From the IMG/VR virus record IMGVR_UViG_3300028833_000101, positions 32,001 through 96,000 of that record: DNA of 64,000 nucleotides. One strand, written 5' to 3'. Source of the DNA: a virus (taxonomy: Duplodnaviria > Caudoviricetes). Positions 1 to 59,051 of this stretch are shown here, one piece after another. Below the pieces are notes generated by a model. That model did no database searches and was not told the origin of the DNA. It worked only from the letters and a program-made list of their open reading frames with translations. Positions within the stretch are counted from its first letter, which is position 1. Each line of letters opens with the position of its first letter. The position numbers and the translations under genes were made by a program.

Positions 1-309
1 CCAGATTTACCTTCTATTACCAGCAGAGCTAAATGAATTGCTCGTCGTAGAATTCTATTATATAAACAAAACGCGCAAGAAAAATTATTAGATAAAACAT
101 TAAAAAATAAATATAATTCTAATTTAGTTCAAATGTGTCTTCGTATCATCTCAAATGCTAAATTTATGACGAATACAACAGATACTTCTGAATTAGTAAT
201 TGTTATACCAGACAACTTTTTAGATAAAATTGCAAGTTTTATCACTTATGGAAATGGTAAAATTGCAGGAAGTAATATATTAAAAATTGCACTTGAAAAG
301 GAGGACTAA
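1..309 (+). CDS. Partial (5'-truncated) putative neck/head-tail joining protein, code 4
   Basis: Frame 1 is open from 1 to TAA at 307-309 with one in-frame TGA (34-36). It ends ITYGNGKIAGSNILKIALEKED, directly upstream of the tail genes. Confidence 0.55.
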
Positions 310-311
310 TT

Positions 312-1094
312 ATGGCCTGTAGATACTATGATGATCTAATTGTAGCAAAATTACAAAAATGATTGCCAACAAACACTCCATTAAGGGTGTTACGTCCAGA
401 TGAGTCTAAAAAACTTTTTGAGCTTACTGCAGATGACCTAAATGACAATCCATTTAAATTACCAATTATTGCTCTTTCCAGAAATAATGACATAGAATTA
501 CTTTCTACAGTAAAATCTCCAAAGTCATATGATGGACTACGATACTATAAAACTGCAGTTCCAAATACTGATCTTACAGGTTTAAAAGGAGAGGAACTAA
601 AACAAGCAGTTAAAGAAATACCTCAAGGAGCTTATCAATTTAATGTTTTGCCAATTAAACTTGTTTATCAATTAGATATTTTTACAAAAACAGATGAGGA
701 AAGCGATGAATATGTAAGAAATTTCCTCTTTAAATTGATCAATAACCCTGTTATTAAAATTATAATTCCTTATCAAGACTTAAATATTGAACATATTGCT
801 AATATTAGAGTCTTGAATACAGTGTCTGATACAAGTGCTATTAGTGAAAGAATATTTAGCGGACAATTTCATAGATGAACGATACAAATGGAATTACAAG
901 ATGCGTTCTTATTCAGTGTTCCATATAGAAAAAATTGGCGTCTATTTATTGATGGTGTTGATGAGATACCAGCCGGAGCTGATGGTTATCTTGAAATTTC
1001 AGAAAAAATTAGCAAATCTGGTGAAGTGGAAAAATTAGATGTTCCATTTGGTCGTATGGATGAACCAGTACCAGATATTGTAATTAAAAAATAG
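312..1094 (+). CDS. Putative tail completion/sheath terminator (T4 gp15-like), code 4
   Basis: ATG 312 follows GGAGG. Track ORFs 363-878 and 888-1094 share a frame and are joined by TGA at 360 and 876. Located just before the sheath gene. Confidence 0.6.
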
Positions 1095-1113
1095 CATAAT
1101 ATTATTAATTTAT

Positions 1114-1124
1114 TTGCTAAATTA
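1114..1124 (+). promoter_or_regulatory. Putative late promoter motif TTGCTAAATTA
   Basis: Intergenic and upstream of the sheath gene. The identical 11-mer recurs at 3496, 16737, 27508, 31989, 32071, 36411 and 52473. Confidence 0.75.
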
Positions 1125-1188
1125 AATGAAGTTCATGGAACTTACACTAAATTAATTAGTCACAAAATTAAAAGGAGACAACAAAAGT

Positions 1189-2787
1189 ATGCCAAAAATT
1201 ATTATTAGCGAATATGATAATACCAGAGCAGGTCGTACTCCATATACTAATTTTGCTGTCGTCGTCCCAGGTTTCGTCAAAGAACGTGCCAAAGGTGAAG
1301 ATGGTAAATATCACTATGGTGGCATGGTTGTTAGCGAAAGTGCAGAAGCTGAAAGTGTTTTTGACGAAAATGATGTATACGAATGTACTAGTCGTGAAGA
1401 ATTTATCAATGTAATTGGTAAAGTCCCAGCTACAAAAAGTATCGTTATAGCTAAAAAATTTGCACAACCTGAAGAAGCTCCAAAAGCATTAACGCAAGAA
1501 GAATTTAATGCTGCCATTGCAAGAACAGATGGAAAGCTCTATGAGGCAGTTCAAGTTACATCAGAAACAAAGCCTACTGATGATAAAGGTGAAAATTATG
1601 ATGAAGGATATGTACATCATTTTGTATTAGTTGATGAAAGAACCGTCTGAGATATTGAAAAACGTTATGCCTTTATCAAGTATGGTAATAATGGTCAAGA
1701 TTTAAAATTAGGCCACCAATATGGTAACCAAATTGCTTATGAATTATTAGGATTAGGTTATACTATTTTATACAAAAAACTTACAATTGCAGGTGATATG
1801 AATGAAGCAAGCTATTGGTCTTGCTTAAAAGACAAAGGCGTTTATGACTTCAGATATATTCTTACTGGTTTATTAGAAGATAATACTACAGCAAATAATT
1901 TAATTATTAGCTTAGCTACACATACTCCTAAAGCTACAGAAACTGGTCGTGGTGATTGTATTGCTCTTGTTGATTTACCGGCTGATTCTTATGAAACTAG
2001 TGGATCACCAATGAGTCAAGCAGATGCAATTACATCTATGACTACTGCCTTAAGTCAAATCGATGCCTCTCAATATGCAGCAATCTTTGCACCATATGTT
2101 AAATATGCAATGTCCAAAGAATATATTGCTACTTGGAAAGGCGAAGATGAAACAGATACACTTGGTTGTGGCTGTGTCTTCCCTGCATCCTTCCATTATT
2201 TAGCTTGTGCTGCTAAAGCTGCCGAAACTTATAATGAATGGTATGCTGTTGCTGGATTTACAAGAGGTATTAGTAATTATACTATTGAAAGTCTTGGTTG
2301 TAAATTAGGTGAAGCTGCTGTTGACATCTTAGAACCACGTTATGCTACTGCAAATATTACAAAAGCTATTAACTTAGTTGTTAAAATTAAAAATAGCTAT
2401 TATTTATGGGGCAATAGAACAGCTTATGCTTTAGGCGCCAAAGAAGGTAATGAAGGTGATTTAAGAGCAAGCCATTTCTTAAATATTAGACAATTATGCA
2501 CTACTATTAAGAAAGATGTTTATGTTGCTTGCAGACGATTCACATTTGATCCAAATAGCGATTTATTATGGGTTAACTTCTGTAATGCTATTAGACCTAC
2601 ATTAGAAAAAATGAAGTCAGATCAAGGTATCTCTGATTATAAATTTGTTAAGGTTAAGAGTTCTCAAAAAGCTCTATTAACTGCTAAGATTAGAATTGTT
2701 CCAATTGAAGCTGTTGAAGACTTTGATATTAAATTATACCTTGAAGATTCTATCGGTGGTATCACAACTGATATTGAAGAAGAATAA
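1189..2787 (+). CDS. Tail sheath protein (532 aa, code 4)
   Basis: ORFs 1189-1650 and 1798-2787 are in frame across a single TGA at 1648. C-terminal sheath motifs: YYLWGNRT, FLNIRQL, FTFDPNSDLLW, IRIVPIEAVEDFDI. Confidence 0.92.
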
Positions 2788-2805: not shown

Positions 2806-3408
2806 ATGTCACAATTTGATGAAAGCTTAAATACTAGACACATTAGTTCTAACTTAGCAAATTATGAAGCAGCTAGAAATGCGTTCTTCACATTAATTGT
2901 TGATGACCTTTCTAACTTACTTAGCCCAGCCTATACTGGTGACCCTGAGGCTGCTGCTGAATCAGATAGACTTAATGATAGTCAAAATATTCTTAGATTA
3001 AACGTTACTAAAGCATTTGTTCCACACTTCAGTGTTGGTACAGAAGAATATAGACGTGGTAATGACGTTGTTAAATTTGCAACAGTTCCTACTTGGGATG
3101 GTGGAACTATTGAAGTTGATGACGTTGTTGGATTAGATACTAAATCTATCTTAATGTCTTGGTTATATCTTGCATATAATCCACATACACGTAAAGGTGG
3201 ACGTATGAAAGATTATAAGAAAACTTGTACTCTTTGTGAATATACACAAGATTATGAGTTAATTAGAACTTGGACTCTTGAAGGTGTATTTGTTACTAAA
3301 ATTACTGAAGCTGAATTTGACAGAGAAAATGACGGTAAACGTAAATTACAAGTTGAATTATCTTACGATAGAGCTTTAGTTGACCTTCCAGTTGTTGAAG
3401 AAAACTAA
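2806..3408 (+). CDS. Tail tube protein (T4 gp19-like)
   Basis: Follows the sheath gene. Motifs YRRGNDVVKFATVPTW, YKKTCTLCEY, RTWTLEGVF, VELSYD. Confidence 0.88.
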   Translation: MSQFDESLNTRHISSNLANYEAARNAFFTLIVDDLSNLLSPAYTGDPEAAAESDRLNDSQNILRLNVTKAFVPHFSVGTEEYRRGNDVVKFATVPTWDGGTIEVDDVVGLDTKSILMSWLYLAYNPHTRKGGRMKDYKKTCTLCEYTQDYELIRTWTLEGVFVTKITEAEFDRENDGKRKLQVELSYDRALVDLPVVEEN

Positions 3409-11225: not shown

Positions 11226-14200
11226 ATGATTACAAAAGGTATAATTAAATCTATTGACTTTACAACAAATACCTGTGTTGTTCGTATGCCTTTATTTGAA
11301 AATGCTGGCAATACTACAGAAATGGTTGCCGAAGCTACTTTTGCTATTCAACCAGGAATTTATAATGGATATAGAGAAGGCGATGTTGTTGAACTTGCCT
11401 TTGACAATAATGAACTTGATTCACCAGTTGTTATTGGAAAGTTATTTTTAGGAACAGCTGAAGAAAATAAAGACCAAAGAGGCACTATTAATTGCCAAGA
11501 TTTAACTGTAACTAAAACAGCAACATTACCATTAGATACAAAATTATCATATGGCAGTGAAGATAAATCTATTGCACAAGTTCAAGGTGGTTATAGTTCT
11601 TTTAAAACTCTTGGAAACGTTATCGAAGCAATTCAAGAAACTAATAAACAAATTACTGCACAAGAAATTAAAAATGGTGATTTCATATTAAAAGAGCAAG
11701 ATGCAAGAATGACTGGTCTTGGTTGGCAGGTTGATGAAAACGCCTGAAGAATTCAAGCATATGATAGCACACATACTTTATACCCTATTTTAGACTTATT
11801 TAGAGTAGATAGAAGTGGTGTCACAATTGCAGGAGAATTAAAGCTAGTAGGCTACCCAAAAGAGACAGTTGTAAGATATGCTAGAGTTTTAGCAGATAAT
11901 TATGAACCAGATAGTGAAGGTCACTATAATCCTACATGAGTTAAAGAAAATAATGGTGAATTAATTGCACTTCCACCAGCCTATGGAACAAAAGAAGAAA
12001 TAGATGCTAACTGAACATATTCAGAAAAACCTGCACATAATGATGATTACTATATATTTCAACTTACTTATAATGTTACTTATGTTTATAATAAAGATAA
12101 CGATCAACTAGATGAAACATATATGAGTCAAATCTGAGAGCTTGTTGATTGGCCAGAAGAAGAAACAACAGGAAATGCTCAGCCTGGAACAATAACTAGA
12201 AACCCAAACCATCGTCCTGGTGGTACCTCTGCGGCAAGCAGAGCCTTAGCAATAGCTCGTGGAAAATCAACTTGTTTTTATTCAGATAAAGAACCATATA
12301 AAAACGATATATTACCCGATGAAGATCTATATGTATATCAGCCAGAATTAAGTATTGGTGACACATGATTTAATACTAGTTATAAAGCTGACTCTATACC
12401 AACAAAATTAACTGATTATATTGGAAAATGAATTATGACAGCACCGGCTCCATTTGGCGGTTTTCCAACTTATGCTCAAGTAACACCAGATAATATCAGT
12501 ACACTCTCAATTAACCCCGGAGTTACTCAAGCATACACACATGGCGAATTATATCAATGCAAAGCCATTAATAATGATGGAAAAGCCACTTGGGAGCCAA
12601 TTGGCAGCGAGTTAGTTGCAAATAAAATTACTACTAATTATATTAATGCTTTAGATATTGTTGCTAAAAAAATTGAAATTTTTGATGCAAATAATAATAC
12701 ACTCTTTAAAGCAGATGGTTTAGCTGATGTCCACGAAGTTAAGATTGCTAATTTTACTGTTGCAAATAATAAAATCTACAGCGATAACAAATCATCATTA
12801 GATTCTAATGTTGATGGTGTTTATATTGGCAATGATGGCATTGCACTTGGTAAGGGAAACTTTGTCGTCACAAAAAATGGCCAAGTAACAATTAAAGGCT
12901 ATGTTAAATCTGTGCTAAAAAAATACAGAAAAATTGAGTATGATAACGAAGCTGAAGCAAGCGCACATTATGCTGATTGGAATAACTGGGAATCAGCTGC
13001 TTGAGGCAGTTCTGTCCCACCTAGAGAAGATGAAAAATATATCTGGGAATGAACACAAGAAGAGCAGGGCGATGGAACGCTTGTCGATAAGGGCAAAGTA
13101 TGTGTTACTGGAACAGCTGGTGATTCCGCACACACTCTTAAAATTAGTAATCCATTCGTTGGTGCCCCTTATAGTAGTGATGGAACAACATCTGAATGAA
13201 ATACTACAACTTTTAGATCGAAGACACTTCACAAATTAACAGCATATTATGGTAATTCTCAAATTACTGATACAATAGCTATTAGAACAACTTCACAAGG
13301 ACCAACAAATACTGGATATTCTATTGTTTATTCTGGCAATAGTGTTACAATAACGAGCGGAAAACCAAGTTATAATTCAACTGATAAACTAGTTGAATCT
13401 TCTATTGACAGTCTTAGCGCGGATAATGGTAGTATAGAATATATTTTATACTATAATGCCGCAGTAGTTGCTTATGCAACTTTTGAAGTAGTTAAAAATA
13501 AAGCTGGTGAAAATGCAGTATCTTATTGAATTGTTGCATCTCCAGATACTGTGACAGCAACTGTGAATGAAAGTGGAACAATTACAGCTAAGTCACCTAC
13601 ATCTGTTTCTGTTGAATTCGATAAACAAATTGGAACTGATGCTGCGGCAAAAATAGTAGCTGCAGACAACCTTTATTATACAACAAAATATGATAATGGT
13701 AATGAAAGTTCAAAAACTAAAATTTCTACAAATCCAATCAGTATTAACACAAGTAGTTTTGATAGTAGAGCAATTATTACTATCTATAGCAATAATACAA
13801 CTAGTGCAGTAAAATGTGCATCTAATACTATTCAAGTAATTAAAGATGGTAAACCAGGTGGTAAAGGCGCTGATGGTAATAGCGTTATAGAAAATAAAAC
13901 ATATTATTCTTTAAGTAATACATCATCTTCTACTGGACCAGCTACTGGAGACTCTAATATTGTTGCAACTCCAACAGTAGACAAATGAAGCACTGCCCCT
14001 CAAGCATTTAATAAAGATGTTCATACTGGTTACCAATATTGGACAGTTGAACGCATTGTTTATTCTGATGCCCCTACAGTTGGTGTTTGGGGTACACCAG
14101 TGCTAGCTTCTATGCTAAGTGTTGATTTTATTAATTCGCTTGCAATTCAAGCTAAAAAATTACTTGTTACAGATAGTAGCTCAAATACCCTATTAGATGC

Positions 14201-34014: not shown

Positions 34015-34015
34015 T

Positions 34016-42507: not shown

Positions 42508-42522
42508 TTTGGAGGCAACTAA

Positions 42523-46433: not shown

Positions 46434-46479
46434 TTAATAAAAATTATAAAAAGACAACTTAAAAAGTTGTTTTTTTTTA

Positions 46480-46508
46480 TTTACAAACTTCTTATTTAGT
46501 TGTATAAT
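46480..46508 (+). promoter_or_regulatory. SigmaA-type early promoter TTTACA-17-TATAAT (first in this cluster; series of about 16)
   Basis: The same architecture has -35 boxes at 47033, 48203, 48780, 49896, 50714, 54345, 56561, 59189, 60049, 60854, 61109, 61550, 62316 and 62923, and at 36211 with 16 nt spacing. Several have TTTACT and 50714 has GATAAT. Confidence 0.85.
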
Positions 46509-46527
46509 ATAAATAAAGGATTAAAAT

Positions 46528-47001
46528 ATGAACATTTATATTGCTGCAAGCTTTGCATATGAAGATAAAGCTAAAACCAGTCAAAAGAAAGACTTAATTG
46601 AAAAAACTGTCAAGAGAATTAAGAAGTTTTTAAAAGGCAATTATTACTTACCACATCAATTAAAAATTCCAAATGCTTGGGATATGAGTTTAGAAGAATG
46701 GTCAAAAGCTGTTTATGAGCATGACATGGAAGTACTAGAAAAAGCAGAAGTTGTAATTTTTCTAAGCTTTGGTAAAGAGAACAATGCCGGGTCGGCTTGG
46801 GAAATGGGGTATGTTCATGGGTTTAATCTACATGAACAAGTTCACTTTCAAAAAACAGTTATAGTAATAAAGATGACTGATGAGCCAGAAAGTCTTATGA
46901 TTAGTAATTCAGTAGATAGAATTATTATGAGTAATGAAATTGAAACTTATGACTGGAAGACATTTCCAAAATATAAAACAGTTTTAAACAAACTAAGTTA
47001 A
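46528..47001 (+). CDS. Nucleoside 2-deoxyribosyltransferase family protein
   Basis: IYIAASF, D..LEKAEVVI, GSAWEMGY. Confidence 0.85.
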   Translation: MNIYIAASFAYEDKAKTSQKKDLIEKTVKRIKKFLKGNYYLPHQLKIPNAWDMSLEEWSKAVYEHDMEVLEKAEVVIFLSFGKENNAGSAWEMGYVHGFNLHEQVHFQKTVIVIKMTDEPESLMISNSVDRIIMSNEIETYDWKTFPKYKTVLNKLS

Positions 47002-47080
47002 GATAATTAAATAAAGAAACTTGTAAAAACTATTTACAAGTTTCTTTTTTTGTGGTATAATATAAATGTGAGGTAAAAGT

Positions 47081-47518
47081 ATGGAAACTATTGTTAGAGA
47101 AAAAACAACTTATGGATTTGTTTTATTTGATAAATATATTTTATGTGATATTAAAACATATCCAGCAAATGATGTCAATTTTAGACGCTTAGATGAAATT
47201 GATAAGAAAAAAGCTAAAATCAGACAATACAATAGTTTAAAAGTTTTAAGAAAAGAAGTACCTGGACATTTACAACAATGGCGTTATTGGTTACCTAAAC
47301 ATAAAGAAAGTGAATGGCTTAAAGATAAAGTTGAACCTTGGTGGGACGAAATTTATACTTTAGAATCATTACTAAAAGAAGCTGGCTTTGGTGAAGCCGG
47401 TTTTGGTGGAATTGGTGCTTTAAGCAGCTGGCATGATACTGGCGCTTGGGAGTATTGTATTAAGCACAAGTATTTTAAAATTATTAAGATTAAAGAAAGA
47501 TTAATTTTTGAAGAATAA
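47081..47518 (+). CDS. Hypothetical early protein (paralog of 47823)
   Basis: Shares DKYILC and IRxYxSLKxL with 47823. Confidence 0.75.
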   Translation: METIVREKTTYGFVLFDKYILCDIKTYPANDVNFRRLDEIDKKKAKIRQYNSLKVLRKEVPGHLQQWRYWLPKHKESEWLKDKVEPWWDEIYTLESLLKEAGFGEAGFGGIGALSSWHDTGAWEYCIKHKYFKIIKIKERLIFEE

Positions 47519-47555
47519 GTATTTACAGACAAAAATATTTAGAAAGTAGATTAAT

Positions 47556-47819
47556 ATGAAAATTGAAATAGAAGTTAAATTTAATATTGATGATAAGGTG
47601 TTAGTTAAAAAGCCGCATAGTGGAAGCTATCAAAAACCAGAACCATTTATTGCAGTAATTGGTGGCTATACAATTACTAAAAATAAAAGATCAACTACAG
47701 TTAGATATACCCTGGAGCCACTTATTAATGATGGTTATTATCATTTTAATGCTGGTATCTCTGACTGGAACCGTAAAAAGAAATATAGTGTCAATGAATT
47801 AGAAAAAATTGAGGAATAA
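47556..47819 (+). CDS. Small SH3/KOW-like hypothetical protein
   Basis: KFNIDDKVLV...ELEK. Confidence 0.7.
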   Translation: MKIEIEVKFNIDDKVLVKKPHSGSYQKPEPFIAVIGGYTITKNKRSTTVRYTLEPLINDGYYHFNAGISDWNRKKKYSVNELEKIEE

Positions 47820-47822
47820 ATT

Positions 47823-48194
47823 ATGAAACATTTGCATAGAGAAGTTATTGGCTATACTGTTATCATTTTAGATAAATATATTTTATGTGGAACTGCTAAT
47901 AATTTACAATGGAAAGATTTAGAAAATTTAGGAAGAGTTAATATTAGGCACTATAAAAGTTTAAAAATTTTACTAAATAATTTATGGTATCATATGACTG
48001 ATTATGGTAGCAACAATTTTAAGTCTATACTAGATGCTGAGTTATCTAAAGCAGGATATTTAAGATACACAGGCTATTATGAAGTTACAGATTATCGTAA
48101 AAAAGAAGCACTTAATTATCTTATTGATGCCGGCTTACTTAAAGTTGTAGAATTACAAGAAAGTATTGACATTGAAAAAGAAGTTAAATTTTAA
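47823..48194 (+). CDS. Hypothetical early protein (paralog of 47081)
   Basis: DKYILC, IRHYKSLKIL. Confidence 0.75.
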   Translation: MKHLHREVIGYTVIILDKYILCGTANNLQWKDLENLGRVNIRHYKSLKILLNNLWYHMTDYGSNNFKSILDAELSKAGYLRYTGYYEVTDYRKKEALNYLIDAGLLKVVELQESIDIEKEVKF

Positions 48195-48252
48195 TAAAGC
48201 TATTTACAAATAAAGTAGTTTATGTTATAATAATAATGCGAGGTAAATTAAA

Positions 48253-48771
48253 ATGGAAATTAAACAAATTGATTGGTCAAGAATTAAACCTAGAATTGGC
48301 AGATGGGTAAGAACAGAAGCCCATGCTGGTCAAGTTAAATACGATTTAGAATCAGACTTAGCTGACCCTTATACTATTACACAATTTACAGTTGACTTTG
48401 AAGATGAAACTGTTTCTACTGGCTGGAGAGAAGAACTTAGTGGACATCAAGAAGAAGTACCATTAACTCCAGAAGAAAACTACGAAGCCAGACAAATGAT
48501 TTCTGATTGCAGAATTATTACTGTTAGCTTTACTATTAGACCAGGGTATGAAGACCTCGCTAAAAGACAATCTGAATATATGCTTGATGGCTATGATCTT
48601 ATTAAAGTTACTATGCAGGGCAATACTATTACATTTGAAGGCAATCATCTAAACTTAAGTGATGCTGTAGCTGATGGTCATATTTCAGAATGGGCTAATG
48701 AAGACCCTGAAGTAGAGATTGATGTTGCCTGTGGTATTGATAGAGCTAACGCAGGAAACTGGGATTATTAA
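48253..48771 (+). CDS. Hypothetical acidic early protein
   Basis: Intact ORF with its own promoter and GAGGT RBS. Confidence 0.75.
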   Translation: MEIKQIDWSRIKPRIGRWVRTEAHAGQVKYDLESDLADPYTITQFTVDFEDETVSTGWREELSGHQEEVPLTPEENYEARQMISDCRIITVSFTIRPGYEDLAKRQSEYMLDGYDLIKVTMQGNTITFEGNHLNLSDAVADGHISEWANEDPEVEIDVACGIDRANAGNWDY

Positions 48772-48836
48772 AAAAACTATTTACAAATAAAAATATTTGT
48801 GATATAATATATTTAGAAAGTTGAAGTAAATAAAAT

Positions 48837-49055
48837 ATGAAAAAAATTATTATTGTTTTGGCGAATGACTGCCTTCAAAGAGTCTACTCTGATGAAAAGG
48901 TCGAAATAGAAGTCATTGATCTTGGAGATGTAGATGAAGAGCACCCAACAAGAGTTCAAAAGAAGCAGCTTAAACAACTAGAAAAATTAGAAGAAGACGC
49001 TAGTTTAACTACCAAGTGTTGGTTCTATGATAACAAACCACTTTCTTATAAATAA
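48837..49055 (+). CDS. Hypothetical early protein (similar to 63307)
   Basis: Pattern IIIVL..CLQRVYSD..IEVIDL. Confidence 0.7.
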   Translation: MKKIIIVLANDCLQRVYSDEKVEIEVIDLGDVDEEHPTRVQKKQLKQLEKLEEDASLTTKCWFYDNKPLSYK

Positions 49056-49070
49056 CGCGAGGAAATAATT

Positions 49071-49736
49071 ATGGAAAAAGAATATCAAAAAATTGGAAAT
49101 GTATTTAAGTTCGACGAAAAGTTTAGAACTATTGTTGGGCTTAATGAACCATATGAAACATTAAAGAATATTATCTGGCAAGGTACTGAAAAGATTGACG
49201 GAACTAATATTCGTGTTCATTGGGATGGTCATGACATTGAGTTCGCTGGCCACACTGATAAAGCACAAATCCCACCAAAGCTTCAAGCTTATTTAGAGTC
49301 CGTGTTCAAAGTCCCAGAAATGGAATATATTTTTGAACAAGTCTTTGGTGAACCTGAAGCGTATATCTTTGGTGAAGGTTTTGGTGCTGGAATTCAAAAG
49401 TCTGGCGGAGACTATGTAGAAAACGGAACCGATGTTTCTTTCATTGTCTTTGATGTTCAAATCGATGGTTGGGACCTTGATAGAAAGAACACTACTGATG
49501 TTGCTACTAAACTTGGTTTACCTTCTGTCCCTGTCTGCTTTGAAGGAACTCTTGATGAAGCTAAAGCTTATGTTGCTGAACATCACATGTCTACACTTAA
49601 TGGTGGCAAGCATGAAATGGAAGGCTTGGTCTTAGTGCCTCGTGATATTCAACTCTATGACAAGAAACACCATCTTATTAAGTGCAAGTGCAAATACAGA
49701 GACATGGTTAGAGCTGGTCTTGTAGAGGAAAAATAG
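49071..49736 (+). CDS. RNA ligase (Rnl2-like nucleotidyltransferase domain)
   Basis: Motif I TEKIDGTN, FGEGFG, FIVFDV, EGLVL, KCK. Confidence 0.88.
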   Translation: MEKEYQKIGNVFKFDEKFRTIVGLNEPYETLKNIIWQGTEKIDGTNIRVHWDGHDIEFAGHTDKAQIPPKLQAYLESVFKVPEMEYIFEQVFGEPEAYIFGEGFGAGIQKSGGDYVENGTDVSFIVFDVQIDGWDLDRKNTTDVATKLGLPSVPVCFEGTLDEAKAYVAEHHMSTLNGGKHEMEGLVLVPRDIQLYDKKHHLIKCKCKYRDMVRAGLVEEK

Positions 49737-49738
49737 CT

Positions 49739-49867
49739 ATGATAGTTGGAATTATTGCAACTATACTTTTGTTTCTCTTAATTTCTGGTTGTATTATTAT
49801 TGGCTTTGCCGATGCTTGTGGAGAAGCAGCTGGTGAAGAAAGTATTTATTCTGGTGGCAAAGAATAA
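49739..49867 (+). CDS. Small membrane peptide (42 aa; absent from the track)
   Basis: MIVGIIATILLFLLISGCIIIG, directly after the ligase gene. Confidence 0.55.
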   Translation: MIVGIIATILLFLLISGCIIIGFADACGEAAGEESIYSGGKE

Positions 49868-49947
49868 AAAACTTTAAGAAATTTGTAAAAAAGTATTTAC
49901 AAGTTTCTTTTTTTATGTTATAATAATTATAGAAAGTTGGTAAGCTT

Positions 49948-50703
49948 ATGAATAAAGAAACATTTGAAACTATTAAAACAAATCTTGAAGCACGAGTAAA
50001 TGAATGTAAAGCACATTTAGACCATATCATCACAACTGATGATTTAAAAACTATTACAGTAGGTGAAGCACAAGAATTAAAAGCTTGGGCAAGTAAAGAA
50101 AGTGCTATTATGACTGAAATAGTTATGGTCGATTTTTATCATATCATTGGTATGGGTGAATTAACAGTTTTACAAACTAATACTTTTATAAAACTTATTA
50201 AAGAATACATGAGTTATCGCTCAGACCTTAAAACTATTGGTGCTCATTTCTCATTAGACAACTTACCAAATCTTCCAAGTATCAGTGAGTTTACATTAAA
50301 GCAACTTGGTAATATTACGCTCACTTCTAAAGTCCGTGGTAGAAATAAAGCTGCCTCTACTTTTATTGAAACAAATACAGTAGGTGACTATGCTAAAGCT
50401 TGCCAAGACCTTGCTAGTAGTATTACTGCTGATGGAGAATGTGGACCATTCAAAATTGAAGACAATACTATTACTTTACCAACTACTTCATTAAATGATT
50501 TTATTAAAGCTATTAATCCAAATCTTAGCCGAGGCAAAATTACTTCAGCTGCTTCTTATCAAAATAATACTGGAAAAGATTATGCTGATATTTTTTGGCA
50601 ATATACAAATGAAGAACATAATGAAATTAAAGCTGTTGTCTCACGAAAGAATGGATACTTTACTGGAATTAAAAATAAATTAAAAAATATTTTTGTAAAA
50701 TAA
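49948..50703 (+). CDS. Hypothetical early protein
   Basis: Intact 251 aa ORF behind an early promoter. Confidence 0.75.
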   Translation: MNKETFETIKTNLEARVNECKAHLDHIITTDDLKTITVGEAQELKAWASKESAIMTEIVMVDFYHIIGMGELTVLQTNTFIKLIKEYMSYRSDLKTIGAHFSLDNLPNLPSISEFTLKQLGNITLTSKVRGRNKAASTFIETNTVGDYAKACQDLASSITADGECGPFKIEDNTITLPTTSLNDFIKAINPNLSRGKITSAASYQNNTGKDYADIFWQYTNEEHNEIKAVVSRKNGYFTGIKNKLKNIFVK

Positions 50704-50762
50704 TTAATAATTGTTTACAAATATAATTTTATATGAGATAATATTAATGTGAGGTAAAAAAT

Positions 50763-51023
50763 ATGACTGTAAAAGAATACTTAGAAGTTCATAGTAGTAA
50801 AGATATTGAATCAATCGGTATTTATTCAGCTACTAAAATTAAGGATGCTTGTGATAGAGATACTGATGTTATTGATACTGATGTTCAACCTGTTGATTTA
50901 GTTAAATATTTAGAAAGAGAAGTTGACCATGTTAGCTTAGGTATCTTTGATGAAACAAGAAAAGCTATTGATGGAACAGACTACAATGCCAAGTTCATTA
51001 GAGCTTGTATTTATGTGAGGTAA
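50763..51023 (+). CDS. Hypothetical early protein
   Basis: MTVKEYL start, with promoter and GAGGT RBS. Confidence 0.75.
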   Translation: MTVKEYLEVHSSKDIESIGIYSATKIKDACDRDTDVIDTDVQPVDLVKYLEREVDHVSLGIFDETRKAIDGTDYNAKFIRACIYVR

Positions 51024-51028
51024 TAATT

Positions 51029-51517
51029 ATGTTTCCAGATTTATTAGATGCTCTTAGTGAATATAGTAGTTATTATACTAGTGATGTTGATCCAGAAGTT
51101 GAAGATGCTTTTAAAAGTATTCTTAAAAAAGTTTGGCATGAACACGCCACGAAATATATAGATAATACTGGAGATATTACTGGAGAAGCTCGTTCAATCT
51201 TAGAAAAAGCTTTACAATTACTTCACAAAAATAAAAACATTCATCTCAGATTCGATTTGAACTCTGAGAAGTGTAAAATGTATCAAATACAAGACCCAAG
51301 AAAGTTAAGCCCACAAACAATTTTACAATTAGAAGTAAAAGAAGGCTTAGATAAACAGTATATCAAAGCTACTATTAGTAATGAAGCTTTCACCGCTAAT
51401 TGGTTACCAACTGATGACTATGCTGGTATTTCAAAAAGAATTAAAGATTTAGATACCATAACTTATCGTGGTATTAGACTTGCTTATATTATTTATCAAG
51501 CAATTAAAGATAATTAG
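51029..51517 (+). CDS. LRxAY-family paralog 10 (early, TGG only)
   Basis: ILEKALQLLHKNKNIHL...YRGIRLAYIIY. Confidence 0.75.
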   Translation: MFPDLLDALSEYSSYYTSDVDPEVEDAFKSILKKVWHEHATKYIDNTGDITGEARSILEKALQLLHKNKNIHLRFDLNSEKCKMYQIQDPRKLSPQTILQLEVKEGLDKQYIKATISNEAFTANWLPTDDYAGISKRIKDLDTITYRGIRLAYIIYQAIKDN

Positions 51518-51521
51518 GAGT

Positions 51522-51860
51522 ATGAATATGTATAAAGTAAAATGTATCGCTGATGGAATGATTGTCTGGAAGGGCACTACTGTCATAGGAATTAAAGGTT
51601 TGACTTTGCCTGAGATGTTTAATGAATGTGATTGTGTAAAACTTCCAGGAAACGCTTTCGATTATTCACTTTCACCCTCTAATAAATATACAGAAGAACA
51701 ACTTGCTTTTATTAATAAAGCAGAAGCTGAGTGGGCTGAAGATGGTGGTGAAGAAATCGATCATGAGCCTGAGTATGGAATTAAGTATGGCGAAGATGAT
51801 GACGTCCCACTAATGGATTTATTTGGCCAAAGCATTCCAGACGATGACTTGCCGTTTTAG
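51522..51860 (+). CDS. Hypothetical protein with SSB-like acidic tail (DDDLPF)
   Basis: AGGAG precedes ATG 51522/51528. C-terminus IPDDDLPF. Confidence 0.65.
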   Translation: MNMYKVKCIADGMIVWKGTTVIGIKGLTLPEMFNECDCVKLPGNAFDYSLSPSNKYTEEQLAFINKAEAEWAEDGGEEIDHEPEYGIKYGEDDDVPLMDLFGQSIPDDDLPF

Positions 51861-51877
51861 CTTCAAAAGGTGAGAGA

Positions 51878-52105
51878 ATGAAAATAACAACTAATGAACA
51901 ACCTTTAATCATAGACTTAGAAAAAAATGAAACATTAACTATATCAAGTACAATAGTAATGATAAAGCATGTTTTTGATTTATCTTTGTACAAAACCGTC
52001 AGACTAAAAGTTTACAATAATATATTTATAGTTGAAGCTGAGAACAAAAATAATGGCAGTAAATTAATCAGGGCTTTTTCTGATACTTGGGGGTTTTCTA
52101 TTTAA
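51878..52105 (+). CDS. Hypothetical protein
   Basis: Intact ORF with AGGTG RBS. Confidence 0.6.
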   Translation: MKITTNEQPLIIDLEKNETLTISSTIVMIKHVFDLSLYKTVRLKVYNNIFIVEAENKNNGSKLIRAFSDTWGFSI

Positions 52106-52305
52106 TGAAAAATAAAGAAATAGTAAAAGCATTAAAGGGAAGTTGGAAAGACAAACCAGTAGAAGTTCTCGTTAAAATTGAGGGCGGACTATACTATCCA
52201 ATTAAAGAAATAGTCAAAAACAAGGATGGTACTTTTACTATTATAGGCAGAAACTTAACTGAGCATTCCGTCATAGGGCCTGCCAAATGGTATAAGAATA
52301 AATAG
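52105..52305 (+). CDS. Hypothetical protein
   Basis: TAATG-coupled to the previous gene. Confidence 0.6.
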   Translation: MKNKEIVKALKGSWKDKPVEVLVKIEGGLYYPIKEIVKNKDGTFTIIGRNLTEHSVIGPAKWYKNK

Positions 52306-52472
52306 AGCTTCTGCCAAAATACACTCATAGTAGGACAAAAAGTTTAAGACTTCTGTCAAAAGCAGAAGTTTTTTATTTCTTTGTTTGTAAATCTTTGTCA
52401 CTTTTGTCACTCAAATGTCACTCAAATAAAAGACTTGACAAAAAGTTGAAATTCAATTTTTTGGCAAATAAT

Positions 52473-52483
52473 TTGCTAAATTA
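52473..52483 (+). promoter_or_regulatory. Putative late promoter TTGCTAAATTA
   Basis: Head of the second paralog array. Confidence 0.75.
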
Positions 52484-52489
52484 TACAGA

Positions 52490-52918
52490 ATGAACAAAGA
52501 TTACAACCAAGAAAGATTTGACTTATTAGAAACTTTGAAGACAGATGTTGCCAGAATGATCAGACTTAAAGACCTGCCGGCAACCTGCCATTCTTTAACT
52601 GCAATTAGTGGAAGAGATGGTAGAACGGAGCTAGTATTGGAACTATTCGTCGACATATTAAATACAGAGAAAATCGCCCGAGTTTACTTATACATTACAG
52701 AGGACATTTTTGACCCAGATGGCTTTGAGTTTATAAATAGTGACATAGGTCTTGGAAATAAAAAAGTAGACACAAAAACCTTCATTAAACTTAGAGCCCT
52801 CAGAACAGTATACAATGTAATAAAAAACGTAAGCACTGGATATGCAAATGCAGTCGACCCAAATAAAATAATATATGTCAGAACACAAAAAACAGGTGTC
52901 TGTGATTATAGGAATTAA
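52490..52918 (+). CDS. LRxAY-family paralog 11 (divergent, near-leaderless)
   Basis: TDVARMIRLKDL...TFIKLRALRTVY. Confidence 0.68.
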   Translation: MNKDYNQERFDLLETLKTDVARMIRLKDLPATCHSLTAISGRDGRTELVLELFVDILNTEKIARVYLYITEDIFDPDGFEFINSDIGLGNKKVDTKTFIKLRALRTVYNVIKNVSTGYANAVDPNKIIYVRTQKTGVCDYRN

Positions 52919-52922
52919 TAGT

Positions 52923-53303
52923 ATGAGTTACCCATATAGACCACAAAAAGAATGAGACATAATAAATATAGTCAAGAAAGCAATCAGGACCTTAAATAAG
53001 AAAAAAGGGACTACTTTAAAGATGGCCAATATTAGCTTTGGTCAAGGTGTGGACAGCAAGTATGGTTCAGGACAATTAGATACCACAATAAGTTTAGTAG
53101 TGCAGGAAACAATAAGTAAAAGAATAATGAAGCTATTCTGATATGAAAGCTTCTTTAATCCTGACTTGCCTGATGATAAAGACGAAGTTTCAGGAGTAAA
53201 TAAAGTAAGTAATCCAGGAGACAAAGTATTGCTTAGAGTTGCTTACTGCATTTGGTTTGGCAGACACTGGATGTCAGCGCCACAAAAGAAAAATAAAAAA
53301 TAA
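52923..53303 (+). CDS. LRxAY-family paralog 12 (code 4; absent from the track)
   Basis: IVKKAIRTLNKKKGTTL...KVLLRVAYCIW. 2 TGA. Confidence 0.75.
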
Positions 53304-53313
53304 TGGTGATAAT

Positions 53314-53679
53314 ATGGAAATAAATAGTAAATATTCTACACTTATTACTTCAGCTTGTGAAAGGGTACAAAGAGTTAAAGGAATTAATGTTTTTCTTTCT
53401 AGTATAGAATTTTATGGTGTTCATAAATACTCGCATGACAATGTATATAAGATAAATCTTATAACCGATAATGGACTCCTTACTATCTATCAAGAAGAAG
53501 AAAACTTTAAGTATTGGGCTGATGTCCCATGGTCTGGCTTGGAAGAGTTTAGACCAGCAGACTTTGATAGCTGATCAGAATATAAGAAGTTAATGCTTGC
53601 TTGGTGCTGGGCAATTTATAAATACTGTAAAGACTGGGGAGACTACCAAAATACAACGCCACCACCAATTGAAGAATAA
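53314..53679 (+). CDS. LRxAY-family paralog 13 (divergent, code 4)
   Basis: LITSACERVQRVKGINV...KKLMLAWCWAIY. TGA at 53572. Confidence 0.65.
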
Positions 53680-53743
53680 ATTAAAAGGTATCTTAGAGAT
53701 ATCTTTTTTATAACTCTTAAAAAATAATCTGCTAAATTATACT

Positions 53744-53870
53744 GAGAAAAAGCTAAGGCAATTGCTATTGGCTTCTTTTTTAATAATTTAATAAAAAACA
53801 TTTGCTATAATTAATTGAAGGTTGTTAAAAAGGCCGAAATAGGTTTTTGGTCAAATATCCTTCTTTTTTT
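53744..53870 (+). ncRNA. Two putative late-promoter mini hairpin RNAs (53744-53781 and 53817-53870)
   Basis: CTGCTAAATTA at 53729 and TTGCTATAATTA at 53802 are each followed by a hairpin and T run, with no ORF. Confidence 0.45.
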
Positions 53871-53899
53871 ATACTCTTTTGCGCCGTATAATATAATGT

Positions 53900-54325
53900 A
53901 TGAATTTTAATATTATAGACCAAGCAATAAAATTAGTAAGAGATAAATTCAAGATAGATTTTACAGTCAGCCAGTATACAATACAGACGGACCCAGAAGA
54001 CATAACAATTGGCGGAGTTGCCCATCACATCTATAGAGAGCCAGAGCTTAGGATGAGTATCACTGTAGTAAAAGGTCGTAATTCTTGGACCAGCTATACA
54101 GACTTAGATTATGTGATATTCGGAAGCGACCTACGAGATGGAAGCTTGATAGATGAAATCATCGGTGGAAATATCAAAGGTTATGAATTAGACATGAGAC
54201 AAGCTCTGAGACTCGCCTTCATCATATATAATGGAATCCAGTATGGCGTAAGCGGAGAGATGAAAAAAGATTATATAGACAAAGGCTGGCATCCAAGAGT
54301 AGTAAGTTCAAGAATGAGGTATTAA
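53900..54325 (+). CDS. LRxAY-family paralog 14 (leaderless)
   Basis: IIDQAIKLVRDKFKIDF...QALRLAFIIY. TATAAT lies 7 nt before ATG. Confidence 0.72.
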   Translation: MNFNIIDQAIKLVRDKFKIDFTVSQYTIQTDPEDITIGGVAHHIYREPELRMSITVVKGRNSWTSYTDLDYVIFGSDLRDGSLIDEIIGGNIKGYELDMRQALRLAFIIYNGIQYGVSGEMKKDYIDKGWHPRVVSSRMRY

Positions 54326-54381
54326 AAAATATCTCATTTTTTTATTTACTTTTAAAGGCAACTATGGTATAATATAAATGT

Positions 54382-55536
54382 ATGAGTAAGATTATCGGAA
54401 CTTGTTTAGGAGAATATGTAAAAGAGGGAGATGTTTTATATGACCCTCAAACAGATACATATAAGATAAAGGCCGGAGATAGACTAGTGGAAATTGATGG
54501 CCACGTTTTGCAATCTGAAAGTCTAAGAACTTTACAGGAAGCCTTAAGCAATGTAGACGACGAAAACATTAAGATAGATATGTTAGGTAGTTGGGCTAAA
54601 GACCTCGACGCAAAATATAGAAGAACTTACTTAGGCGACTGGGGACCGGACAGAACAGATGAAGCTAAGACAGCAGTAGAGGCAGCGGCTGAGGCAGAAG
54701 CAGAGGCGAGAGCGAAAGCAAGGTTCGCAGAGGCGAGAGCGAGGATGTCAGAAGCGAAAGCAATGAGTAGCAAAACAGCGGCTGCGGCAGGTCCTGCAGG
54801 AGCGCCTTTTGACAGTCAGAGCTTCGACCCCTTGCGTGCGCGCGTTGAAGCCGAAACAGACTCTGGAGCCTGGAAGATAGATGGCCTCGGAGCCCGCATC
54901 AGACCAGTGGACACCGGAGACTGGAACGTCCGCTTCACCGATAAAGCCGCTGAGAAGCTTAGGGAGAACAGCGTCTACGGTAGTGGCGTCGGAACGGCAA
55001 GCCACACCTCCGCGCCCTGGGACGATCCTCTAAAGGACCAGATAGACAAAGCTAGTAATACTGTAGCTTGCTGCGACTTACCTGAACTAAAGCCTGACTA
55101 TAATCCTAATGATAAGGTGAAAGTATATTACCATGATAGATTTCCTTCTATACCTATTCGTTCTATAATAGATGACGCGATTGAATTACTAAATAATAAG
55201 AAAAATTTACATATATCTAAAATTTCTTTACACAATGAAAAATTCAGCGACAAAGACTATAGACTTGCGATATCCTCTAGAATTCCCGAAAGACCAGGAT
55301 ATATAAAGACTTTAGAAGTAGCAATTAATCATACGGCGTTCGACAGAGCCTACAAGACAGAGCTGGACGGATATGCCAAACTTAAAGCCAGACTTGATAC
55401 AAATACTTATATTAAACTTAGAATTGCTTTCTTACTATACCAGGCCTTGAAGCTGCGAGATGAAGACGCCAGAAAGATAAGCTTGGACATCTTTAGAATT
55501 ATAGGCAGCGATACAAGACCAGGATTTCACTTTTAA
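54382..55536 (+). CDS. LRxAY-family paralog 15 with long N-terminal extension and GC-rich Ala-rich linker
   Basis: C-terminal IIDDAIELLNNKKNLHI...YIKLRIAFLLY. Early promoter at 54345. Confidence 0.75.
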   Translation: MSKIIGTCLGEYVKEGDVLYDPQTDTYKIKAGDRLVEIDGHVLQSESLRTLQEALSNVDDENIKIDMLGSWAKDLDAKYRRTYLGDWGPDRTDEAKTAVEAAAEAEAEARAKARFAEARARMSEAKAMSSKTAAAAGPAGAPFDSQSFDPLRARVEAETDSGAWKIDGLGARIRPVDTGDWNVRFTDKAAEKLRENSVYGSGVGTASHTSAPWDDPLKDQIDKASNTVACCDLPELKPDYNPNDKVKVYYHDRFPSIPIRSIIDDAIELLNNKKNLHISKISLHNEKFSDKDYRLAISSRIPERPGYIKTLEVAINHTAFDRAYKTELDGYAKLKARLDTNTYIKLRIAFLLYQALKLRDEDARKISLDIFRIIGSDTRPGFHF

Positions 55537-55574
55537 AACTTAGTTAAAGGCTGCTTAGACAAACGAAACACAAT

Positions 55575-55606
55575 AAGCCAGGATAAATTTATATCTTGGC
55601 TTTTTT
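55575..55606 (+). terminator. Rho-independent terminator
   Basis: AAGCCAGGATA-AATTTA-TATCTTGGCTT plus Ts. Confidence 0.75.
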
Positions 55607-55961
55607 CGTGCCCCAAAACGCCCCGTTTTGCTTTTTGCCCGAAATTGGTACATTTTCGTTTTTTAGCTTTTCCGAATTTGCCCCGTTTTCGTTACTGGCC
55701 AGATCCGCGATCCAGGGCGTCCGAAATTAGTACGTTTTCAAAAAACGAAATCACCCCAGTTTCATATTTGAGCCATTATTCATATAAAGCCGAAATCACC
55801 TCGTTTTCAAAAATGGCCAATTTGGAGCAATTTCATTTCAGGGTAGATAAAATACCTCGGAATATAAAAAAACGTCACAGAATGCGATTGTGACACATCT
55901 GTGACTATTCTAAGCTTTCGCCATATTATGCAGATGAAACCAAGACAATTTCAATAGCTAT

Positions 55962-56250
55962 AAAATAAAAGCGACGACTCAGAGCCTGGAAAAGAGAGAG
56001 GTGATGGCTCGTTGTGTGTCGTCGCCGGGACCGAAGCCCCTGAAAGGAGGTAATTGTCATATAAGGAGATTTGACTCATTAAACTGCCCGAAACCTTACT
56101 GACTTAGTTTTATCATGCGGTTTAAGTACGTATCGTTAGTTAGTCTTTTTGACACTCTATTGATTACCTATCGTCTATTGATTATCTATCGTTATACGTA
56201 TCGTTCTGAGGCGGTCCTTTACATTATCGGCAGTTTTTCGGTCGCCTCAT
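55962..56250 (-). ncRNA. Putative ~290 nt sRNA with three anti-SD elements
   Basis: Minus-strand TTGTATAAT (-10 at 56256-61), 5' hairpin, cUUCGg tetraloop, and a terminator stem GCGACGAC/GTCGTCGC followed by a U run. Confidence 0.7.
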
Positions 56251-56309
56251 ACTATATTATACAATTCAAATCTAAATTTTAACAACTTTTTTTAAATTTT
56301 TGTAATTTC

Positions 56310-56960
56310 AACTTCGTGCGTGTGCATACGTGGCGGCGCGCCAGTATTCTTAATCCTTAGAAGAATACCGTGCGTGGCCATGTGCGTGCGTATATACTAA
56401 AGCTTTCAAATCAGGGCGATTTCAAATGCTATGAAACTCAGGCAATTTCAAGTGCAGGTTAATAACAACTTATATATGATCTATCTATCTAACGATAGAT
56501 CATATATAAGCTATTTTGAAGCAGCTGTAGGTTAGCCCTGTAAAAAAGTTAAAAAAACTATTTACAACTGTTTACTTTTGTGCTATAATATTGTTATAAT
56601 GGGGGGTGTTTTTTTAAAAAAAATAAAAAACCCTGAAATCGGGATATTTTAGACTGTATAATATAATAGGGAATAAAATGAAATTGGAACAATTTCATTT
56701 ATGTGTGCGCAAGCACACACGTGTAATACTAAAAAAATTCAACCTAAATAAAATTCCAAATCAGGGTGTTTTTAATAATTTAATAAATTAATAATTTAAT
56801 GATTTAATGTTTTAATAAATTATTAACACATAAATTATATGTACATGAATTATCTATATTAATTCTTAGCTAATATTTTATAGCTATAGTAGCATAGCTT
56901 ATAATATATAGCTTATATATAAGCTTTTGGCGCCCGCACACATATGTACACGTGTACAGT
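56310..56960. other. Origin- or terminus-like non-coding region
   Basis: 17-bp perfect inverted repeat at 56469-56510, alternating purine-pyrimidine tracts, AT-rich 9-mer repeats, an orphan promoter and TTCAAATCAGGG-type repeats. Confidence 0.5.
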
Positions 56961-57003
56961 AAGTACAGAATTAGAGCAAGTTCAAATCAAGGAGATTTCA
57001 GAT

Positions 57004-57309
57004 ATGGCAAATCCAGAACAAAAGAAGTGACCAGTCATCACTTGCCCACATTGTGGTTATCAGTATGCTCCAGCAGAGATATTCATGCCAGGAGATCTGA
57101 TTGGCAACCCAGAACAAGTTGTTAGAGATGCACTTGGCAAAATCATCTACCAAGAATATGATGAAGATAGTGAACCAGCACAAGTTGGGCACTACATCTG
57201 TGACGAGTGTGGAAAACCATTCATCGTGGAGCCAGTGATCACATATAAAGTCAAGAAAGAAGATGAGGCAAAAGATTTCAGTGATCTTTCCGCCAGCTTA
57301 CTAGACTAA
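57004..57309 (+). CDS. Zinc-ribbon protein (code 4)
   Basis: ATG 57004 follows AAGGAG. TGA at 57028. CPHCG and CDECG pairs. Confidence 0.75.
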
Positions 57310-57335
57310 TTTCAAATCAGGGAGATTTCGTTTAG

Positions 57336-59051
57336 ATGATCTACGTCAGAGAGATCGTTCCAAGAAAATTTTCCGGGCTAAGTTCATTCTTAGTCTCTTT
57401 TCAGTATGACCCAAAGATAGTAGAAGCGATCAAAACAGTTCCGGCCTACTACTATCACAAGAAAGATTTGTGCTGAGAGATTCCAAGTGACTATCTTGCC
57501 ACTCTTTTAGATACACTTACTTTCTTAGATAATATACAGTTGATAATGCTTCCTGAAACTGAGGTGATTCTAAACCAGGATGATTTCAGTTTGACCCAGG
57601 CGGAAATAGACCAACTTCATTTCAAACCATTTCCACATCAAGTAGATGCGATCAACTATGGCTTAAATCCGAAACACACTAAGTGGCTCTTACTAGACAG
57701 CATGGGCCTTGGCAAAACGTTAGAGATCATCGGATATGCAGAAACTCTAAAATCCAGAGGTCTTATCGATCACTGTCTCATTATTTGCGGAGTAGATTCA
57801 CTAAGACAGAACTGGAAATCCGAAATCGAGAAGTTTTCAAACTATGGTGTTAGAGTCTTAGGCGAATACATCACTAAGAATGGAACCATCAGATACAGAA
57901 CGATCCCAGAGAGAGCTGCGGAGTTAAAAGAACCAATCTCAGAATTCTTCGTAGTAATTAACGCAGCCACACTAAGACATGATGAAGTGATCGATGCATT
58001 TAAAAAATCTAAGAACAAGTTTGGTTTGATTGCAGTAGATGAAGTGCATCGCTTTGCATCATCAACATCGCAACAAGGCGACAACCTACTAAAACTAAAA
58101 TCTGATTACAAGGTTGCAGCTACAGGTACACTTTTACTAAATTCACCGATCAGCTGTTATGTACCTCTAGTGTGGACTGAGAACGATCATAGCATCTTAA
58201 CAAACTTCAAAGCTCAGTACTGTAAATTCGGCGGTTTTGGTGATAAACAGATCGTTGGATATAAGAATTTAGAGACACTGAGAGAAGAAATAAATTCTTG
58301 TATGATCCGAAGAACGTTGGATCAAGTGCGTGATGACATGCCACTAAAGAACATTACTTACCAGATAGTAGAAATGTCTGATCAACATCGTAAGTTTTAT
58401 GATGCTATAGTGGACGGTGTAAAATCAGAAGCTGATAAGATCAAGCTCAATACATCGAACTTACTTGCGTTAACCACTAGACTTCGCCAGGCTACAGCAT
58501 GTCCTAGTGTGCTTACCACTCAGAACATCGTAAGCTCTAAGGTCGAAAGAGCTGCGGAAATAGCTACAGATCTACTAGAGTCAGGCGAGAAAGTCGTAGT
58601 GTTCAGTATGTTCAAGGAATCTGTACAGGCTTTAGCTACGATGCTAGCACAGTACAAGCCGCTAATCTGTACAGGCGATTACACTGAACAGCAGATCAAA
58701 TCTAGTGTGGAAGCTTTCCAAAACGATCCAAATTCGAAATTACTGATCGGTACGCATCAGAAGATGGGTACTGGATTTACACTAAATTCAGCATCGTACT
58801 TGATCTGCATCGACACACCATGGACTGATGCTTCACTAAGCCAGTCTACAGATCGTATCTGGCGAATCACTAACAAGTATCCAGCATATGTTACCGTGCT
58901 TACTTGCGCTGATACTATTGATGAACGTGTTAGAGAGATCGTCGAAACTAAGAAGGATCTATCTGACTACATGATCGACGGTGTAGAGAATGAGCTCGCA
59001 GTTAGTGAACAGCTTTCGAATGAGATGCGCAGAATCATTCAGAACCTTTAG
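57336..59051 (+). CDS. SNF2/SMARCAL1-like helicase with N-terminal HARP-like domain (code 4)
   Basis: DSMGLGKT, DEVH, ATGT, GTGFTL, QSTDRIWR. N-terminal FQYDPKIVEAIK..C(W)EI reads through TGA 57474. Confidence 0.9.

Follow-up and report, generated by a model that had tools for sequence, protein, structure and literature searches.

The DNA analysed here, a stretch of 64,000 nucleotides (nt) referred to below as the window, corresponds to positions 32001-96000 of a 104,702-bp viral contig (IMG/VR record IMGVR_UViG_3300028833_000101). It carries tail, baseplate and fibre genes of a phage, followed by a long series of small genes, and the reading frames of its structural genes are repeatedly crossed by TGA. 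We conclude that TGA is read as tryptophan (Trp) in these genes, and that this use of TGA belongs mainly to the late genes of the phage.

Every credible gene of the contig is on the plus strand. Family searches identified a T4-like portal (PF07230, E = 1e-32), a gp23-like major capsid protein (PF07068, E = 7e-31), a prohead protease (PF03420), a tail sheath (phrog_23), Peptidase_S74 fibres, a collagen-repeat fibre and two BspA-type leucine-rich repeat (LRR) proteins, as well as a candidate large terminase (L001:14538-16628) with a weak match to phrog_2 (E = 1.8e-6). The phage is contractile-tailed and has T4-type head genes. Its GC content is low (0.30-0.37), and the DNA of the contig is present in sheep gut metagenomes. 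The contig is classed as linear; a CheckV completeness of 46%, together with the collinearity of its first 59 kb with 3.9-58 kb of a complete relative (G005; 232,051 bp, with a 222-bp terminal repeat and 485 in-frame TGAs), marks it as a fragment, about 46% of the genome of a jumbo myovirus of ~220 kb.

Named phages are distant. A Megablast search with 10 kb of the window found no match among GenBank phages, an exact-match search with the contig's first large protein likewise found none, and the capsid proteins of cultured phages are 22-30% identical, the best at 30%. A 146.5-kb JGI contig (L118) overlaps the 3′ end at ~85% nt identity, and an ENA scaffold (L117; 96% nt identity) reaches 8 kb past that end. 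The full-length fibre protein of 1521 amino acids (aa) is already present in a public protein collection (P0001), so at least one pipeline has called this contig with TGA as a sense codon (code 4).

In-frame TGA codons and the residue they encode

Under code 11, the plus strand gives short, broken open reading frames (ORFs); under code 4, these merge into long frames, each closed by TAA or TAG directly beside the next gene. For ORFs of at least 100 aa in window positions 1-59051, plus-strand coverage rises from 0.68 under code 11 to 0.91 with TGA as sense, and is 0.72 with TAG as sense, which is no real gain. The contig-wide gene set, consisting of greedy longest-ORF calls under code 4, comprises 114 genes, covers 93% of the contig and contains 146 in-frame TGA and 261 TGG codons. 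The initial annotation had counted 90-95 TGAs by hand in 1-59051; we find 96, distributed over 32 genes, with 90 in 1-45405 and the remaining 6 in 45456-59051. Its description of continuous frames abutting their neighbours is borne out by a median intergenic gap of 15 nt across the 58 genes of the TGA-rich block, and its estimate of at least six genes invisible under code 11 agrees with the 7 window genes whose longest code-11 piece is under 60 aa. The openness of the frames is not a product of chance, because in the two alternative frames of the window genes TAA and TAG together make up 5.5% and 8.9% of codons; neither codon occurs in the 1521-codon frame with its 18 TGAs or in frames of up to 1797 codons. 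For the gene with 18 TGAs, the 1521-aa fibre, code 11 leaves at best a piece of 14% of its length.

To read the codon in related phages, contig proteins were aligned with TGA masked as X, and the corresponding codon was then taken from the DNA of each relative. The relatives came from IMG/VR (44 portal-anchored, 17 baseplate-anchored and 4 helicase-anchored loci), with the complete 232-kb genome in addition. Over 675 aligned cells, a TGA of the contig stands opposite TGG in 54%, TGA in 16%, Asp in 8% and Tyr in 8%; a Trp-type codon holds the majority in 42 of the 69 covered columns, and Gly appears as single cells in just 2 of them. As controls, TGG codons of the contig align with TGG in 70% and TGA in 7%, and its Gly codons align with Gly in 76%. 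The reverse comparison, from TGAs of the relatives to the contig, gives TGA in 44%, TGG in 31% and Tyr in 15%. The initial annotation had named Gly or random residues at these columns as the outcome that would speak against Trp; the homologues show mainly Trp codons and almost never Gly.

It had also quoted six sites as family Trp positions, all of which were located (X again marks the TGA). At 17274 (ERXDPASTNESDPG), the 19 relatives have TGG in 17 and TGA in 2. At 15345 (LGTSSNRXTYIY), Trp is found in 12 of 14 homologues, and at 42412 (DSNXKYY) in all three aligned LRR caps. The site at 36861 (TPHIGDNGNXFIG) was assessed by motif tally alone, because collagen repeats dominated the representative search made with that fibre; the tally gives Trp in 281 of 281 motif instances from 65 homologues. 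Support is thin at 28659 (GQLHGTXGGL), where the sole relative covering the column has TGG, and no homologue spans the column at 12366 (GDTXFN), the fibre homologues found sharing the C-terminal domain only. Five of the six quoted motifs thus show Trp. A second study supplied RNA-library contigs, which lie on the late genes and match the DNA at 11 TGA sites; carry-over DNA is possible in such libraries, and their letter-identical contigs mean that no edited form (UGA to UGG) was seen. On these comparisons, TGA in the structural block is Trp, and not Gly, selenocysteine or a gene break, because its columns hold TGG or TGA in relatives and almost never Gly.

Partition of TGA by gene class and promoter

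Trp codons are split 134 TGA to 139 TGG within contig positions 1944-77405 (to 45405 in the window) and 12 to 122 elsewhere (Fisher p = 5e-17). The recoded stretch was initially annotated as window positions 1-59051, which holds for the dense TGA use at its core, with two corrections: that use ends at 45405 and is sparse from there to 59051, and recoding extends ~30 kb upstream of the window. Twelve TGAs fall outside the late block. In five cases the codon is among the first six of its gene and an alternative start follows it, and in another a TAA comes five codons later. Relatives support with TGG just two of the 6 in 45456-59051, those at 57028 and 57474; the TGA at 47069 is the second codon of its gene and is followed by an alternative start. 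In relatives, too, the early genes are free of TGA.

The partition coincides with two promoter classes, one early and of host-sigma type, the other of late type. From window position 46480 onward there are ~26 near-identical copies of TTTACA-N17-(TG)nTATAAT, all of those found, each 5-70 nt before a small gene. Judged by its letters, this array is a very regular, sigma-70-like early-gene set with an extended -10 element of Gram-positive type. A few genes of the array have a nominal TGA, which then precedes an alternative start; the sole exception backed by relatives is a 121-aa gene at 56944 (TGA 57028). The motif TTTGCTAAATTA, predicted as the likely late promoter, occurs 18 times on the plus strand of the contig and once on the minus strand, mostly in intergenic positions before structural genes, and differs from the T4 late promoter TATAAATA.

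The initial statement that TGA is read as Trp in structural and late genes therefore holds as a partition and needs qualifying in detail, since not every late gene uses TGA and one gene outside the structural set, an SNF2-type helicase, does. Twenty genes within the late block have no TGA (32 TGG), including the capsid (L002:3192-4520), the prohead protease (L002:1352-3151) and the tail-tube-like gene (window 2806-3408), and these three are also TGA-free in the heavily recoded G005. In 11 recoded relatives taken together, none of the 39 Trp codons of the capsid gene is TGA; the corresponding share of TGA is 43% for the terminase and 24% for the portal. Given a capsid gene without TGA in all of these, suppression capacity may be limiting and may shape which late genes can use TGA.

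Two early genes may end at a TGA. In L003:4146-5063 (contig 99146-100063), the TGA at L003:5043 stands five codons before a TAA and is kept in six relatives of two diverged lineages; it may be a true stop backed by TAA or a sense codon. A second candidate TGA stop, at window position 60433, overlaps the start of the next gene.

Table 1. Features of the window, with coordinates in the window.
Feature	Position	Strand	Remarks
TGA-dense late block: tail, baseplate, fibre, LRR and small paralogous genes; 90 TGAs	1-45405	+	extends upstream to contig 1947
Tail sheath (phrog_23); 1 TGA, 5 TGG	1189-2787	+	
Tail-tube-like gene; 0 TGA, 3 TGG	2806-3408	+	named solely by position beside sheath; none of 7 Trp codons is TGA in recoded relatives
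1521-aa tail fibre; 18 TGAs, including 12366 and 15345	11226-15791	+	C-terminal Peptidase_S74 chaperone (precomputed Pfam); phrog_1980
1797-aa conserved baseplate or tail protein; 5 TGAs	17166-22559	+	17232 and 17274 are TGG or TGA in 19 of 19 relatives
1024-aa fibre with Peptidase_S74; 4 TGAs	24033-27107	+	
950-aa DUF4314 protein; 5 TGAs	27552-30404	+	28659 lies within the domain
Eight small genes with the highest TGA density; 18 TGAs, 6 TGG	32099-35414	+	several invisible in code 11
Collagen-repeat tail fibre; 3 TGAs	36468-37340	+	36861 in PxIGxNGNW motif
Two BspA-type LRR_5 proteins, 843 and 960 aa; 5 and 4 TGAs	39976-45405	+	42412 at the conserved C-terminal-cap Trp
TGA-sparse zone: GT2 glycosyltransferase, RNA ligase, small genes; 6 nominal TGAs	45456-59051	+	
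SNF2-type helicase; one sense TGA, at 57474	57336-59051	+	in relatives TGA in four, TGG in two
Early-type region: ~26 promoters TTTACA-N17-(TG)nTATAAT, TGG-using small genes	46480-64000	+	continues to contig end
Late-promoter-like motif TTTGCTAAATTA	1116-36421	+	copies before genes at 1116, 3498, 27510, 31991, 32073, 36413

Decoding genes in related phages

The clade defined by the portal is mixed, in that many members have no in-frame TGA and others are recoded. Two standard-code sisters, G002 and G004 (220-221 kb), resemble the phage in jumbo size, in sharing the same structural module and in portals that are 59-65% identical; they differ in having no in-frame TGA and in encoding ~30 tRNAs (32-33 by count, Trp(CCA) among them). 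Tryptophanyl-tRNA synthetase (TrpRS) was found in neither, and release factor 1 (RF1) was not found in G002, the sole sister searched for it.

Among the recoded relatives, G005 has trpS followed directly by prfA, both free of TGA, and the next gene contains 9 TGAs. Its prfA scores 467 bits against an NCBIfam equivalog cut-off of 423 and has the PET and GGQ motifs. A fuller set is found in three contigs from ENA (L122, L123 and L124), in the order tRNA(UCA), a 189-aa gene, TrpRS and RF1; coverage of these contigs is 0.65-0.73 under code 11 and 0.89-0.93 under code 4. The tRNA came to light on aligning the intergenic DNA upstream of TrpRS-RF1. It is 72 nt long with the anticodon loop CUUCAAA (UCA), scores 35 bits with the Rfam tRNA model (cut-off 29) and was missed by Aragorn. 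Its three copies show four differences in all, which make up two fully compensatory pairs in the anticodon stem, and its anticodon arm is similar to that of the tRNA-Trp(CCA) of the clade. The nearest named bacterial homologue of the phage RF1 is from Clostridia (Intestinibacter, 57% identity), which is consistent with a standard-code Firmicute host.

Wider searches added few cases. When IMG/VR was searched for RF1, using the G005 protein or an alignment of two RF1 sequences as query, the matches were limited to G005, G003 and one partial hit, and the recoded fragments G006-G010, which are 11-41% complete, have neither RF1 nor a tRNA. Aragorn at lowered thresholds made hundreds of calls, rejected as noise.

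Several further elements were observed. A 192-aa gene at window 59467-60045 is 49-55% identical to the gene that separates tRNA(UCA) from TrpRS in relatives; it is not followed by TrpRS and RF1 here, so the gene order differs in the lineage of the contig. In G004, a weak match to the suppressor-tRNA model (L060:375-445, minus strand; 22 bits, E = 0.003) has the loop AUUCAAA (UCA) and the same D-arm, and a standard-code sister may, from this match, already possess a TGA suppressor. G003, which is partly recoded, has 49% GC and encodes RF1, also has a tRNA with a 6-nt anticodon loop, CUCAAC (L053:774-849, minus strand; SeC or Leu according to Aragorn). In G005, a 61-nt tRNA-like gene without an anticodon arm adjoins a match to the c-di-GMP-I-GGC riboswitch (L071:1501-1561 and 1620-1694, L063:1091-1496), the latter sub-threshold at 45 bits (cut-off 59). 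Both G005 and G003 encode a tmRNA.

A probable two-stage code and its alternatives

Recoding of this kind is known. TGA-recoded 'Jade' phages of animal and human guts have been described with a module of suppressor tRNA, TrpRS and RF1 (Borges et al., 10.1101/2021.08.26.457843; Nat Microbiol 2022). The portions of that preprint used here report recoding of TGA to Trp that favours late genes and arises in clades with standard-code members as well, suppressor tRNAs in 35% of code-4 genomes, an inferred Firmicutes-type host for the Jade phages, and standard-code 'Agate' phages that carry a TGA suppressor; they also propose that early expression of the module, itself in standard code, opens translation of the late TGA genes (10.1101/2021.08.26.457843). 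The initial annotation had linked the locus to this work, and the link fits, as relatives carry the very module described there.

To judge from the same portions, the likenesses extend to genomes of ~200 kb, TGA as Trp in structural and late genes, early genes compatible with the standard code, and standard-code clade-mates. They also include a module written in standard code, here in L122-L124 and partly in G005 (without the tRNA), and, beside the Firmicutes-type host inferred for those phages, an RF1 that in a relative is nearest to Clostridia here. The differences are that the module is absent from the contig, which is 46% of the genome, and that a 189-aa gene lies between tRNA and TrpRS in L122-L124; a promoter-class partition and a TGA-free capsid gene were not encountered in those portions of the preprint. 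The phage may thus be called Jade-like by its genome size and, in relatives, by its module.

Crass-like phages, in which stop-codon recoding has been reviewed and some members are predicted to read TGA as Trp (PMC11210395), and Lak megaphages share a phage-specific reassignment of a stop in a standard-code host and a bias towards late genes. They are unrelated lineages, however, in which TAG = Gln predominates and the hosts are Bacteroidetes; crAss-like phages are podovirus-like and Lak genomes reach ~550 kb, whereas the present phage is a contractile-tailed myovirus with a T4-like portal and a gp23-like capsid.

We consider it very probable that the phage runs a two-stage genetic code, with TGA for Trp in late genes, TGG in early genes, and a switch made by a phage module. 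Early in infection, to extend what is seen in relatives, the host ribosome would read the standard code, and late genes would be cut off at TGA. A module readable in that code, consisting of a UCA suppressor tRNA derived from tRNA-Trp, TrpRS and RF1, would then change the code: the suppressor tRNA would compete with host RF2 for UGA and place Trp there, additional RF1 would maintain termination at UAA and UAG, and translation of the tail, baseplate, fibre, portal and terminase genes would open. In the phage of this contig, the module would be expected in the half of the genome that the contig does not cover. The capsid, prohead protease and tail tube, which are the virion proteins of greatest abundance, are probably TGA-free since suppression would be less efficient than normal decoding.

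Several points weigh against this model. The assignment of Trp comes from sequence comparison. The tRNA-Trp(UCA), RF1 and TrpRS for which the initial annotation proposed a search were not found in the contig or in the 8 kb beyond its 3′ end, where no tRNA at all and no Rfam family at gathering score was detected, the contig being 46% complete. The module in this phage, the code of its host and the timing would all be carried over from relatives at ~50-55% protein identity. The case for a standard-code host is indirect, drawing on the codon partition, the module of the relatives, the Clostridia-like RF1 and the extended -10 sigma-70 promoters. The sense TGA at 57474 in the SNF2 helicase means that the split is not strictly one of structural against non-structural genes. 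Finally, no tRNA(UCA) was detected in G005 by Aragorn with or without introns, by Rfam to E 5 or by a covariance model of the L122-type suppressor, which had no match in the contig either.

Either the phage suppressor tRNA is not universal in the clade, or it is non-canonical there and evades detection. Because G005 is complete and heavily recoded, and has TrpRS and RF1 with no detectable tRNA(UCA), a phage suppressor tRNA is perhaps dispensable: TGA decoding in the clade may not always need one, the host tRNA-Trp(CCA) in G005, and perhaps in the present phage, being pushed by the phage enzymes to decode UGA or an unrecognised RNA taking its place. We regard this as a possibility, though an unlikely one.

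A switch by the phage would not be needed if the host itself used code 4, as a Mycoplasma-like lineage would, and the phage mirrored it. The absence of a suppressor tRNA from the contig, the low GC and the absence of any contig gene that ends unambiguously at TGA agree with such a host. A code-4 host would, however, impose no hold on TGG in one gene class, and its retention in early genes (122 TGG to 12 TGA at ~33% GC, with TGA for half of the Trp codons in late genes) therefore counts against it; TGA for Trp in early genes too, the trait expected of a phage of such a host, is not seen, at 12 : 122 against 134 : 139. RF1, TrpRS and tRNA(UCA) would also be needless in the recoded relatives, the clade includes standard-code sister phages, and the phage RF1 is closest to that of Clostridia. 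We find a code-4 host improbable.

Still less likely, to the point of being very improbable, is that the TGAs are real stops, in pseudogenes, through assembly errors, or rescued by selenocysteine, low-level readthrough or UGA to UGG editing. Nothing specific favours this, as it is the generic reading of any in-frame stop, and 146 TGAs occur in 114 tightly packed frames that contain no TAA or TAG; dozens of independent assemblies keep TGG or TGA in the same columns. Cys is outside the twelve commonest residues at TGA columns, and Rfam detects no RNA family at gathering score in the contig; RNA-library contigs keep TGA at 11 sites, DNA carry-over being possible, which argues against editing; and natural readthrough, with eighteen leaks in one gene, would yield no product. 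The assignment of TGA to Gly (code 25), as in phages of Absconditabacteria and Gracilibacteria, would open the same frames as code 4, so that ORF length cannot discriminate, and merits almost no credence when single Gly cells in 2 of 69 columns are set beside TGG or TGA in 70% of cells and when every motif check gives Trp. We take code 25, selenocysteine and pseudogenes to be excluded as readings of these TGAs.

Both the phenomenon and its proposed role in late-gene timing are already published, and the contig adds a ruminant-gut example. The alignment of code with promoter class and the consistently TGA-free capsid gene are details possibly worth specialist attention. A clade with both standard-code and recoded members is a good setting in which to study how recoding arises and what limits it, and the TGA-free capsid gene and the genomes without a visible suppressor tRNA are limits to examine there. 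For annotation, code 11 loses or truncates most of the tail, baseplate and fibre genes of this contig, and code 4 is needed for their functional reading.

Two glycosyltransferases of the contig were also observed. A GT2-Stealth fusion of 615 aa with 6 TGAs is encoded between the capsid and neck genes (L002:5324-7168), and a second GT2 glycosyltransferase, at window 45456-46433, is TGA-free.

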